Origin: Escherichia coli
Lineage (GTDB): Bacteria > Pseudomonadota > Gammaproteobacteria > Enterobacterales > Enterobacteriaceae
Direction: 5' to 3' (one strand)
DNA length: 64,000 bases
Assembly (NCBI RefSeq): GCF_003334765.1
Contig: NZ_QOWT01000005.1
Shown piece after piece: positions 32,054 through 36,463 of this stretch. How positions within the stretch are numbered: position 1 is the first letter of the stretch; every line of letters starts with the position of its first letter. Below the pieces are notes generated by a model, which made no database searches, was not told the origin of the DNA, and was given only the letters and a program-made list of their open reading frames with translations. The position numbers and the translations under genes are program-made.

Positions 32054-32725
32054 TCAGCCACCCATTGAACGAGAAGAGGTACCGGTTGCACTACGCTGCA
32101 TAGTGCTTTGTTTGGCAACAGATTCACCAAAACCGCCACGGGTAACGGTAGTGGTGGTCGCCGGTTTTGGTGCCATTGCCGTCTTCGGTACGGTCATGGT
32201 GCGGCCTGGCTGGGCTGCGCCATAGTTTTTACCCGTCGCGTCGGTATATTTACCGTAAGCCGGACTGGCTGGGTTTTTCGAGGAGAACAGCGGCTGCTGT
32301 GCAAATCCCGCGCCGCCGCCCATCAGACGCCCCATCATGTAACCGGCCATCAGCGGCATCCAGAAACTCCCGCTGGATTGCTGGGCCTGCGCCTGGTTTT
32401 CTGGTGCCATGCCAGCCTGGGCTGGTGCCTGCTGGCACTGACCTTCACCAAATTCAGCAACACAGTCTTCACGGGTGGCGTATTTCGGCGCAGTACGTTC
32501 GGCTTCTTTCAGCGCATTGTTGTACGCGGTGGTACATTCGGCGCTTTTGCCTGGGTTTGCAGCTGAACAGTCGTCAGCATTTTGATAGAGAGACACTGTT
32601 TCATCACTCTTTTCACAGCCAGCCAGCATAAAAACAGTGGCAACCGCGAGAGCGACTGGTGTCAGATGGCGTGCGCTCCAGTTTTTGCGGAACGATGCGT
32701 GGCGTATGGATTTTGTCCGTTTCAT
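32054..32725 (-). CDS. ygiB: DUF1190-family lipoprotein-like protein
   Basis: Start at ATG 32723-32725 ([16 protein letters not shown]..., 223 aa); probable lipobox LAGC. Confidence 0.82.
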
Positions 32726-32872
32726 TTTTGTCTTCCGGGACCAGTGGTAAATACCCATCAGAATAGAGGATGGCTGGTCGAAATTGAAGCGAGAAGGGGG
32801 AAGAATGCGGCAGATAACCCGTATCTTTACGTTGCCTTACGTTCAGACGGGGCCGAAGCCCCGTCGTCGTCA

Positions 32873-34354
32873 TCAGTTACGGAAAGGGTTATGACCGTTA
32901 CTGGTGGTAGTGCGTGCGGATGTTTGCTGAACGACGGGGGCCGGGCTATCAGGCGCATAACCATCAGCAATAGCATTCTGTTCCGGCGTTTGCGGGGCAA
33001 CGTTTTCCGGATTAGTGGAAACCGGTTTGCTCAGCGCATTGTTCAGTGCCAGCAGATCCTGCTCGTTCAACGTACCCAGGGCTGACTTAATATTCAGCTG
33101 ATTAATCAGGTAGTTATAACGCGCATTCGCCAGCTCTTGCTTGGCGTTGTACAACGTGGTGGTCGCATCCAACACATCAACAATGGTACGCGTACCGACC
33201 GAGTAGCCCGCTTCCATCGCGTCTAATGAGCTTTGAGCGGAAACTACGGCTTGTTTGTAGGCGTTAATGCTACTGATAGATGCATTAATGTTGTTGAAGG
33301 AGGAACGCACGGTCTGCACGACGCTACGATGGGCACTTTCCAGTTGCTCGCTGGCACCGACAAAGTTGTACTGTGCCTGTTTCACCTGCGAGTTAACCAT
33401 TCCGCCCTGATAAATCGGCAGCGAGAAGCTCAGGCCAACTTTGTTCTGGCCCATATTGCTATCGTCATACTGGGTACCAGCGGCACCACGGGTTTTCGAA
33501 CCGCTATAAGAGGTGTCAGAAATCCCGGTAGAAGCCGTTAAATCCAGAGTCGGTAAGTGACCATCCTGCGCCTGGCGAATTTGCTCGCGCGCCAGGTCCT
33601 GGCTCAAGCGTGCCTGTAACAGCGACAGGTTGCGTTTTTCGGCTTCTTTCAGCAGCGCGTTAACCGGCTGTGGTTTGTCGGTTTTAAAGTTTTCGACATT
33701 CAGCGCAGCCAGTTCCGGATAGTAGTTACCGGTGATCTGGCGCAGCTGCTCTACCGCGTTATCAAGGTTATTACGTGCGGTCACTTCGTTCGCCAGCACG
33801 GTATCGTACTGTGCGCGGGCGTTCTGCACGTCGGTGATCGCTACCAGGCCCACGTTAAAACGTTGGGTGGTTTGATCTAATTGACGGTAGATCGCTTCTT
33901 TTTGTGCCTGTGTATAGGAAAGAACGTCAATAGCATTCAACACGTTGAAATAAGCGGTCGCGGTGTTGAGGATCAAGGTTTGCTGATCGGTCTGATACGT
34001 GACGTCCTGAATCCCTGCTGCTTTTTCCTGCAGCGTTAACGCACGCCATTTCGACATATCAAAAATGGATTGAGTTAACTGCAAGGACGCACTGGTCGCG
34101 TTAGAGTTGATGCCGTTCGCGTCGCGGTAGCCGTTGCTATAGGTGTAATCTGCACCTAAACCTAGCTGTGGCAGTAATGGACTGCGCGCTTCATTAATTT
34201 TTTCAAAGGCAGCATCACGATCGGCGGCAGACTTACGCAATTCCGGGTTACTAAGGCGTGCTTGCTGATAAACTTGCATCAGGTTCTCGGCCTGGCTCAA
34301 CGAACTGAACCCAGAAAGGCTCAGGCCGATAAGAATGGGGAGCAATTTCTTCAT
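32873..34354 (-). CDS. tolC: Outer membrane efflux channel TolC
   Basis: Start at ATG 34352-34354 (MKKLLPILIGLSLSGFSSLSQAENLMQVYQQ..., 493 aa); ORF track begins 13 codons upstream. Confidence 0.96.
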   Translation of the reverse strand: MKKLLPILIGLSLSGFSSLSQAENLMQVYQQARLSNPELRKSAADRDAAFEKINEARSPLLPQLGLGADYTYSNGYRDANGINSNATSASLQLTQSIFDMSKWRALTLQEKAAGIQDVTYQTDQQTLILNTATAYFNVLNAIDVLSYTQAQKEAIYRQLDQTTQRFNVGLVAITDVQNARAQYDTVLANEVTARNNLDNAVEQLRQITGNYYPELAALNVENFKTDKPQPVNALLKEAEKRNLSLLQARLSQDLAREQIRQAQDGHLPTLDLTASTGISDTSYSGSKTRGAAGTQYDDSNMGQNKVGLSFSLPIYQGGMVNSQVKQAQYNFVGASEQLESAHRSVVQTVRSSFNNINASISSINAYKQAVVSAQSSLDAMEAGYSVGTRTIVDVLDATTTLYNAKQELANARYNYLINQLNIKSALGTLNEQDLLALNNALSKPVSTNPENVAPQTPEQNAIADGYAPDSPAPVVQQTSARTTTSNGHNPFRN

Positions 34355-34558
34355 TTGCATTCCTTGTGGTGAAGCAGTATTTAGCGCGATCAAACTGTAA
34401 AATTATTGCGGATTCTAGCAGAAGCCGCTACCGCAAAAGGTTGGCGTTACGTGCCATAGGGCGTTAATGTGCCTCAATTTAACACATGACTGCTCAAACG
34501 GCAGTCAAACGTCGCTGAAATTCACATTTAATTCACTATTAGTGCCAGGACATTAACA
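34355..34558. promoter_or_regulatory. Divergent tolC / nudF promoter region
   Basis: 204-bp intergenic region between the tolC and nudF start codons. Published tolC promoters and MarA/SoxS/Rob and response-regulator sites lie upstream of tolC, but I did not localise them by sequence. Confidence 0.4.
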
Positions 34559-35188
34559 ATGCTTAAGCCAGACAGCCTGCCCGTTACATTTGGCAAAAAC
34601 GATGTAGAAATTATTGCACGAGAAACACTTTATCGCGGCTTTTTTTCATTAGATCTTTATAGATTTCGTCATCGTTTATTCAACGGGCAAATGAGTCATG
34701 AGGTACGGCGGGAAATTTTTGAGCGCGGTCACGCCGCAGTCTTGCTACCCTTTGACCCAGTGCGTGATGAAGTTGTGCTGATTGAGCAGATTCGGATTGC
34801 CGCATACGACACCAGTGAAACCCCCTGGCTACTGGAGATGGTTGCCGGGATGATTGAAGAGGGTGAAAGTGTGGAAGATGTTGCCCGTCGCGAAGCGATT
34901 GAAGAGGCGGGACTGATAGTCAAACGGACCAAACCGGTGTTAAGTTTCCTGGCAAGCCCGGGAGGCACCAGTGAGCGTTCGTCAATTATGGTGGGCGAAG
35001 TGGACGCCACGACCGCAAGCGGTATTCATGGTCTGGCTGATGAAAACGAAGATATTCGCGTTCATGTGGTAAGCCGGGAACAGGCATACCAGTGGGTAGA
35101 AGAGGGGAAAATCGACAACGCAGCGTCGGTCATCGCTTTGCAATGGCTGCAGCTGCATCATCAAGCGTTAAAAAATGAGTGGGCATAA
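34559..35188 (+). CDS. nudF: ADP-ribose pyrophosphatase (Nudix hydrolase)
   Basis: 209-aa ORF with Nudix box ([22 protein letters not shown]). Confidence 0.9.
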
Positions 35189-35611
35189 ATGAAGCGTTAC
35201 ACACCTGACTTTCCTGAAATGATGCGCCTGTGCGAGATGAACTTTTCACAATTGCGCCGTTTGTTACCGCGCAATGACGCACCCGGCGAAACTGTAAGCT
35301 ATCAGGTGGCAAACGCACAATATCGGCTGACGATTGTGGAATCGACCCGATACACTACCCTGGTGACAATAGAACAGACTGCGCCCGCGATCAGTTACTG
35401 GAGCCTTCCGTCAATGACGGTGCGTCTGTATCATGACGCGATGGTGGCTGAAGTGTGTTCAAGCCAGCAGATTTTTCGCTTCAAAGCGCGGTATGATTAT
35501 CCTAATAAAAAGTTGCATCAACGCGACGAAAAGCATCAAATTAACCAGTTTTTAGCGGACTGGTTGCGATACTGTTTAGCACATGGAGCGATGGCGATTC
35601 CGGTTTACTAG
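35189..35611 (+). CDS. yqiB: DUF1249-family protein
   Basis: 140-aa ORF starting immediately after nudF stop (TAA ATG). Confidence 0.82.
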
Positions 35612-35635
35612 CGTCGTGAAACCTAAGGACACCAT

Positions 35636-36463
35636 TTGGAAAGCCTGTTAACCCTTCCTCTGGCTGGTGAGGCCAGAGTCAGGATTTTACAAATTACCGA
35701 TACTCACCTGTTTGCACAAAAGCACGAAGCCCTGTTAGGGGTAAACACCTGGGAAAGCTACCAGGCGGTGCTGGAGGCGATTCGTCCACACCAGCACGAA
35801 TTCGACCTGATTGTCGCGACAGGTGATTTAGCGCAGGATCAATCCTCTGCGGCCTATCAGCATTTCGCTGAAGGCATCGCAAGTTTTCGTGCGCCCTGCG
35901 TCTGGCTGCCTGGCAACCACGATTTCCAGCCCGCGATGTACAGCGCGTTACAGGATGCGGGTATCTCCCCGGCGAAGCGCGTGTTTATTGGTGAGCAATG
36001 GCAAATCCTGTTGCTGGATAGCCAGGTGTTTGGCGTGCCGCACGGTGAGCTGAGCGAGTTTCAGCTTGAGTGGCTGGAACGTAAACTGGCCGATGCGCCA
36101 GAACGCCATACGTTGCTGCTGCTGCATCATCATCCGCTACCTGCGGGTTGTAGTTGGCTCGATCAACACAGTCTGCGTAACGCGGGCGAACTGGATACCG
36201 TGCTGGCGAAGTTTCCGCACGTCAAATACTTGCTGTGCGGTCATATTCATCAGGAGCTGGATCTCGACTGGAACGGTCGCCGCCTGCTGGCAACGCCGTC
36301 GACCTGTGTGCAGTTTAAGCCGCACTGTTCCAACTTTACGCTGGACACCATCGCGCCCGGCTGGCGTACTCTCGAGTTACATGCTGATGGCACGCTGACC
36401 ACCGAGGTGCATCGCCTGGCGGACACACGTTTCCAACCTGATACCGCTTCAGAAGGCTACTGA
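35636..36463 (+). CDS. cpdA: 3',5'-cyclic AMP phosphodiesterase (calcineurin-like metallophosphoesterase)
   Basis: 275-aa ORF; metallophosphoesterase motifs (GDL..D, GNHD, GHIH); apparent TTG start at 35636. Confidence 0.88.

Follow-up and report, generated by a model that had tools for sequence, protein, structure and literature searches.

A C(UUCG)G hairpin without a U tract at the tolC-ygiB junction of Escherichia coli

The tolC-ygiB junction and its hairpin

In E. coli, the main multidrug efflux pumps use TolC as their exit duct in the outer membrane. The tolC gene is followed by ygiB and ygiC, and the tolC-ygiBC operon is already in the literature. We analysed the tolC-ygiB junction in a 64-kb stretch of DNA (the window), in which all three genes lie on the minus strand. 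The stretch comes from the E. coli chromosome: when 401 nt around the hairpin described below were used as the query, all 5,426 of the complete genomes gave a match, with 95-100% identity and located at tolC and ygiB. The spacer between tolC and ygiB is 147 nt long and untranslated. Table 1 lists the features of the locus; a window position equals 3212469 minus the K-12 coordinate (NC_000913.3).

Table 1. Features at and around the tolC-ygiB junction, with window positions, K-12 MG1655 coordinates and remarks.
Feature	Window	Strand	K-12 MG1655	Remarks
tolC, annotated CDS		-	3178115..3179596	
tolC stop TGA	32875-32873	-		From the sequence and ORF list; K-12 tolC annotation
Second in-frame TGA	32872-32870	-		Immediately after the tolC stop (tandem UGA UGA)
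Obsolete ygiA ORF	32873-32613	-		86 codons
Hairpin GACGGGGC-UUCG-GCCCCGUC	32865-32846	-	3179604-3179623	tolC 3' UTR, sense strand
tolC 3' end, SMRT-Cappable-seq	32844		3179625	2 nt past the stem
tolC 3' end, Term-seq	32841		3179628 (+)	5 nt past the stem
Direct repeat GTAAG-N5-GTAAA within ACGTAAGGCAACGTAAAG	32826..32840	-		Candidate CpxR box; starts 6 nt past the stem, ~80 nt upstream of the ygiBC TSS
C-rich, G-poor tract	32761..32820	-		Candidate rut region, overlapping the region of the ygiB promoter; C 23 and G 8 over 60 nt
Internal ygiBC promoter	32753..32788	-		TSS at K-12 3179716, window 32753 (PMC6131387)
-35 hexamer TTCAAT (inferred from sequence)	32788-32783	-		17-nt spacer to the -10
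-10 hexamer TATTCT (inferred from sequence)	32765-32760	-		
ygiB CDS	32054..32725	-	3179744..3180415	DUF1190 lipoprotein; downstream gene, reached by read-through
ygiC, annotated CDS		-	3180421..3181581	
Hairpin between ygiC and ygiD	30855-30880			11-bp perfect stem

The first-pass annotation had reported an inverted repeat just past tolC, and we find it at exactly the position given there, with some changes in detail. Its stem, described as 6 bp, is in fact 8 perfect base pairs (GACGGGGC/GCCCCGTC), six of them G-C, around a loop of 4 nt. The tetraloop had been read as CGAA, which holds for the plus strand but not for the message: because tolC is on the minus strand, CGAA is the complement of what the mRNA carries, a UUCG loop on a closing C-G pair, i.e. 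the hyperstable C(UUCG)G tetraloop. The hairpin does lie just downstream of the stop codon as had been noted, but its distance of 10-25 nt needs correction, as the stem begins 8 nt past the last base of the tolC stop (5 nt past the second TGA) and ends 27 nt past the stop. On the sense strand the order is tolC UGA UGA, CGAC, GACGGGGC-UUCG-GCCCCGUC and then UGAACGUAAGG.

The predicted folding energy of the 20-mer is -16.6 kcal/mol (z = -4.3), with none of 200 shuffles folding equally well, and the hairpin forms in both the MFE and the centroid folds of the whole intergenic RNA. With 0.03 occurrences expected in the window, the sequence GGGGCNNNNGCCCC is found there once. The 64-kb window holds 12 entries, from 10 distinct loci, for perfect hairpins of at least 8 bp and dG of -16 or lower, where first-order Markov simulations give 0.67; the tolC hairpin is therefore a member of an enriched class and not a one-off. 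Between the convergent genes ygiC and ygiD we observed an 11-bp perfect hairpin, TACCGGATGGC-GAGT-GCCATCCGGTA (dG -20.2), which has no clear U tract on either strand; the ygiC 3' end mapped by Term-seq and SMRT-Cappable-seq at K-12 3181617 (window 30852) lies 3 nt past it.

Within the species the tolC hairpin hardly varies. About 5,275 E. coli records carry its 32-nt core without any difference (100% identity), the hairpin is found in essentially all 5,426 complete genomes, and the single E. coli variant that we inspected carries its change in the spacer past the stem and leaves the stem intact. Besides chance partial matches of 21 nt, the core has one place per E. coli genome. A REP element was considered and rejected, the hairpin being single-copy in the window and in each E. 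coli genome. In NZ_CP025268.1, which derives from K-12 MG1655, the match begins only at window position 32859, so this genome is without tolC and without the hairpin's 5' arm; this is presumably an engineered tolC deletion with its junction inside the stem.

No U tract follows the hairpin, as the first-pass annotation had also stated: the 8 nt past the stem, UGAACGUA, contain 2 U, and a terminator scan did not call the site after tolC. A canonical intrinsic terminator combines a G+C-rich stem-loop of about 5-12 bp and a short loop, both of which are present here, with a U-rich stretch of 7-8 nt directly after the stem, which is missing, and with Rho independence, which the published data discussed below do not bear out (an internal promoter lies within the downstream window of those data). 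An Rfam covariance-model search of window positions 30000-36000 with E-values up to 10 returned only two eukaryotic chance matches elsewhere in the stretch. We also rejected a terminator acting on the opposite strand, as the plus strand has no T run past the hairpin and there is no convergent gene.

The hairpin also falls inside a formerly annotated reading frame, ygiA (b3036 in older annotations), whose 86 codons start at the ATG overlapping TGATGA at the end of tolC. One could suppose that the hairpin is constrained by the translation of this frame or regulates it. We find this scarcely credible, given that ygiA is missing from the current RefSeq annotation, that the ORF overlaps ygiB out of frame and that a comparable ORF occurs in only 8 of 80 orthologous loci. 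The ATG is already lost in one Escherichia species, where TGACGA in place of TGATGA removes the second stop along with it.

Downstream of the hairpin lie two elements that bear on the expression of ygiBC. The wider motif ACGTAAGG... starts 3 nt past the stem and the direct repeat GTAAG-N5-GTAAA, which is near-invariant in 79 of 80 loci, follows. By its match to the CpxR consensus GTAAA(N)4-8GTAAA (PMC9603713), the repeat fits a candidate CpxR box; we found no description of it as a CpxR site in the literature examined. In Citrobacter rodentium, a fragment of ~300 bp from upstream of ygiB gives CpxRA-dependent lux expression. The second element is an internal ygiBC promoter, for which we propose the hexamers in Table 1. 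Both are held by a conserved block, GCTTCAATTTCGACCAnyCATCCTCTATyCTGA, 7 nt upstream of the TSS at 3179716, and its -10 portion, CATCCTCTATyCTGA, is conserved across genera. The start predicted from these hexamers coincides with the published TSS, at which 175-195 reads were counted, more than the 67 at the tolC TSS at 3178000 (PMC6131387).

Mapped 3' ends, read-through and Rho at the junction

Published K-12 data place the 3' end of tolC mRNA next to the hairpin. By Term-seq (Adams et al. 2021, PMC7815308), an end classed as 'primary' for tolC maps to NC_000913.3 position 3179628, at the C of ...GUCUGAAC according to the printed flanking sequence. Its scores in the two rows displayed are 4220 and 1585, and the occurrence counts imply that it occurs in all three growth conditions. 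Yan et al. 2018 (SMRT-Cappable-seq, PMC6131387) report a primary transcript that covers tolC alone, with its TSS at 3178000 and its TTS at 3179625. Of the 67 reads that start at this TSS, 12 end at the TTS, 5 end at most 50 bp downstream of it and 11 read through, with a median read-through of 1029 nt. The same study reports read-through isoforms b3035-b3038 from the TSSs at 3178000 and 3178073 and, in M9 as in the second condition, a b3037|b3038 transcript labelled 'novel' that starts at 3179716 and ends at 3181617/8. The mapped transcripts therefore resolve into three isoforms, namely tolC alone up to the hairpin, tolC-ygiBC, and ygiBC from its internal promoter. An 'orphan' Term-seq 3' end was also listed at K-12 3177983 (+), window 34486, in one condition (PMC7815308); it lies 132 nt upstream of the tolC ORF and 17 nt upstream of the TSS at 3178000.

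The hairpin is the end of about half of tolC transcripts, and the remainder enter ygiB-ygiC. Bicyclomycin changes the coverage across the junction. The table of Rho termination regions in PMC7815308 contains a peak at 3179617, inside the hairpin, with a Rho score of 2.30 (p = 1.6e-7). Without bicyclomycin, DirectRNA-seq counted 204 reads on the upstream side of this peak and 107 on the downstream side, a downstream/upstream ratio of 0.52; with the drug the counts were 161 and 194, a ratio of 1.20. Both pairs come from 800-nt windows, the downstream one of which includes the internal ygiBC promoter, and induction of that promoter by bicyclomycin could therefore mimic read-through. The Term-seq end at 3179628 itself has a Rho score of 2.16 and is flagged 'Yes' for a Rho termination region, while its intrinsic-terminator score (Chen-model) is 1.32, with a threshold of 3 (PMC7815308).

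These data agree with the first-pass annotation, which had proposed partial attenuation, RNA stabilisation or both within a tolC-ygiB-ygiC operon as opposed to full termination. It had named flat coverage across the junction and a lack of 3' ends near the hairpin as the outcome that would speak against this proposal, and the opposite is seen: coverage without bicyclomycin steps down over the junction, and both mapping methods place ends beside the stem. What it had missed is the apparent involvement of Rho and the promoter of ygiBC's own, about 90 nt downstream.

A candidate rut region is found in the C-rich, G-poor tract that follows the CpxR-like box. A C/G ratio as high as there occurs in only 1.3% of all 65-nt windows across the 64 kb, and the bias is conserved, with C exceeding twice G in 77 of 79 orthologous loci (C 1447 vs G 362) while the sequence in the middle of the tract varies. 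Because the tract overlaps the conserved promoter region, its composition may stem from the promoter and not from a rut site. The last ~60 nt of the tolC coding sequence (32881-32940 on the minus strand; C 26, G 8) are likewise strongly C-rich and G-poor, and this stretch could contribute to Rho loading if ribosomes terminate early.

We consider the best explanation, and a probable one, to be partial Rho-dependent termination downstream of the hairpin, in or past the C-rich tract, combined with exonuclease trimming back to the protective hairpin. Term-seq and SMRT-Cappable-seq report steady-state 3' ends, in which termination and processing are indistinguishable, as Adams et al. state (PMC7815308). 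It is thus conceivable that no termination takes place near the junction, that tolC-ygiBC RNA is cleaved in the spacer (e.g. by RNase E), that the upstream fragment is then trimmed and that the coverage step reflects differential decay. The hairpin is an obvious exonuclease barrier, and the predicted fold leaves the A/U- and C-rich spacer single-stranded. A bicyclomycin-sensitive step, however, is unexpected if the origin is purely nucleolytic, with the caveat about the internal promoter applying here too, and we regard processing without termination as distinctly unlikely.

Comparison across Enterobacteriaceae

Scanning the genome collection with YgiB gave one locus for each of 80 Enterobacteriaceae species. 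All but one of these loci (79 of 80) have a near-invariant motif, ACGTAAG(G/A/C/T)CAACGTAAAG, between tolC and ygiB. Within the 62 nt upstream of this motif, 65 of 76 distinct sequences have a best hairpin that at most 1 of 100 dinucleotide shuffles reaches, and the best ortholog hairpins have a median of -17.2 kcal/mol compared to -3.4 kcal/mol for the shuffles. Most of the exceptions have a hairpin or a REP-like palindrome farther upstream. REP-like palindromes (e.g. GCCCGATGGCGCTTCGCTTATCGGGCCTAC) after the tolC stop were seen in nine loci, in Salmonella, Enterobacter, Lelliottia, Huaxiibacter and some Citrobacter; they stretch the spacer to about 190-215 nt and take the place of the simple hairpin.

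Escherichia and Citrobacter share an identical 20-mer, while the bases between stop and stem and the sequence after the motif differ. Over all loci, 26 distinct hairpin sequences lie at most 6 nt from the motif and show several pair types at equivalent stem positions; these hairpins were of our own selection and anchored on the downstream motif, which makes the tabulation descriptive and not an independent test of covariation. RNAalifold returned no consensus structure for 25 orthologous segments, the MAFFT alignment having been spoiled by three non-homologous hairpins and by variable loop lengths.

This variation bears on whether the repeat acts as DNA. A perfect inverted repeat adjoining a conserved CpxR-like box might be bound by a dimeric regulator, might belong to the architecture of the ygiB promoter or might be a chance palindrome without function. 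Chance is excluded by the shuffle z-score, by the count in the window and by the shuffles of the ortholog hairpins. From genus to genus the repeat stays symmetric and stable although its sequence differs (GGGGC/GCCCC, CCGGCGC/GCGCCGG, GGAGGTGCTC/GAGCACCTCC, CCCGGTGCA/TGCACCGGG), which argues for a folded strand and against a site for a sequence-specific protein. RNA 3' ends also lie directly past the hairpin. A role at the DNA level therefore seems very improbable to us.

The tail behind the hairpin varies as well. We distinguished 61 combinations of hairpin and tail. In 15 of them, including those of Kosakonia, Phytobacter, Entomohabitans and Cedecea, 5 or more T fall within the 8 nt past the G-C-closed stem, and 35 have at most 2 T. 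The hairpins of Escherichia, Citrobacter, Siccibacter and Buttiauxella lack a U tract. The terminator scan called the Phytobacter ursingii hairpin terminator-like; it did not call the Kosakonia sacchari and Cedecea davisae orthologs, in which the maximal stem takes part of the T run into A-T pairs. The Kosakonia/Phytobacter form, ACGGGGGC...GCCCCCGU-UUUU-ACGUAAGG, is visibly homologous to ACGGGGC...GCCCCGU-CUGA-ACGUAAGG of E. coli. Homologous hairpins thus differ in their tails, and the U tract is the variable part. This is in line with the proposal that terminators switch mechanism via their uridine content (PMC6061677).

Because the Kosakonia and Phytobacter homologs have a T5 tract, the E. 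coli hairpin could keep some weak hairpin-driven termination. The site would then be a leaky, non-canonical intrinsic terminator at which the hairpin itself dislodges RNA polymerase inefficiently, perhaps with NusA or NusG, and Rho is at most a backup. The size and energy of the stem-loop are those of intrinsic-terminator hairpins, the tolC 3' ends are sharp and near the stem, and the relatives speak for it as well: in Kosakonia, Phytobacter and Enterobacter spp., TTTTT comes after homologous hairpins that occupy the same position with respect to the motif, T6-7 follows the hairpin in Cedecea and Entomohabitans, and one ortholog, that of P. ursingii, is terminator-like to the scan. Transition states of this kind are discussed by Dar and Sorek 2018 (PMC6061677). 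In E. coli, however, the scan passed over the site and the tail offers only 2 U in 8 nt. Intrinsic terminators usually release the transcript 7-9 nt past the stem, and the tolC ends, at +2 and +5 nt, are nearer to it than that. Bicyclomycin moreover roughly doubles the downstream coverage, and the published score stays below its threshold (PMC7815308). A leaky intrinsic terminator is therefore, in our judgement, unlikely.

It is tempting to speculate that the tolC-ygiB junctions form a natural series in which one orthologous hairpin switches between an intrinsic terminator and a U-less 3' end that depends on Rho and exonucleases. We put this forward tentatively, as a possibility against which the odds still lean. 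If it is true, lineages would in this way adjust both the amount of tolC transcription that reaches ygiBC and the insulation of the Cpx-activated internal promoter, and the series would be a concrete evolutionary case of the mechanism switch hypothesised by Dar and Sorek.

Proposed role of the hairpin and comparison with known systems

If partial Rho-dependent termination and trimming operate at the junction, the hairpin would be the 3'-terminal stem-loop of the monocistronic tolC mRNA isoform. RNA polymerase that has passed tolC would enter the untranslated spacer, and in roughly half of the cases Rho would load on the C-rich RNA downstream of the hairpin and terminate transcription diffusely, within the spacer or early in ygiB. 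The 3'-to-5' exonucleases PNPase and RNase II would then trim the tail until the C(UUCG)G hairpin halts them, which would leave a defined 3' end 2-5 nt past the stem and a protected tolC message. Transcripts that are not terminated would go on as tolC-ygiBC. From the partial end and the protection at the hairpin, we propose that it sets the tolC:ygiBC ratio and stabilises tolC mRNA. As a secondary role, it is plausible that the hairpin insulates the Cpx-responsive internal ygiBC promoter, a few nt downstream, by cutting the transcription that would come in over it from tolC.

The tolC 3' end and its coupling to ygiBC affect how independently the dosage of TolC and the Cpx-regulated envelope genes ygiB and ygiC can be set. 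They also matter for tolC engineering, where deletions, selectable-marker cassettes and polarity arguments all rest on assumptions about this junction. Conceptually the hairpin is nothing new. Both the 3' end and the Rho dependence at tolC are already in published genome-wide tables, and the only points that are mildly new are the comparison across genera and the CpxR-like box next to the hairpin; the former is a modest but clear illustration of terminator types interconverting in Enterobacteriaceae.

Compared to known systems, the tolC hairpin shares with intrinsic terminators a G+C-rich hairpin soon after the stop codon, and its orthologs in Kosakonia, Phytobacter, Cedecea and Entomohabitans share the T5-T7 as well. 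In contrast, E. coli and Citrobacter have CUGAACGU in place of the U tract, a sub-threshold score and read-through that responds to Rho inhibition. With the C(UUCG)G hyperstable hairpins it has the loop and the closing pair in common, a structural motif that is silent on the mechanism of termination. Tuerk et al. reportedly noted in 1988 that hairpins of this kind occur between cistrons and at the ends of transcripts and act there as stability elements. REP/BIME elements resemble it in position and in presumed role, as an exonuclease barrier with partial attenuation between cistrons; the E. coli hairpin differs from them in being single-copy and in lacking the REP consensus.

The closest likeness is to the Rho-dependent transcripts of Dar and Sorek 2018 (NAR 46:6797, PMC6061677), which end directly past stable stem-loops without U-rich tails and for which diffuse Rho termination downstream, trim-back by PNPase/RNase II and C-over-G enrichment downstream were described. 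That 3' stem-loops are protective is a hypothesis of Peters et al. 2012. The tolC hairpin shares with this class a terminator-like stem-loop without a U tail, a sharp steady-state 3' end directly downstream (+5 and +2 nt), read-through that increases with bicyclomycin, and an excess of C over G downstream, for which the promoter overlap is a second possible cause. Trimming by PNPase/RNase II belongs to the description of the class and is what we infer at tolC. Unlike in the class, termination at tolC is partial and takes place inside an operon instead of at its end, with a promoter starting a few nt downstream. With these differences, the tolC hairpin belongs to a kind of bacterial mRNA 3' end that is ordinary and has been catalogued before, and it is a textbook-grade case.
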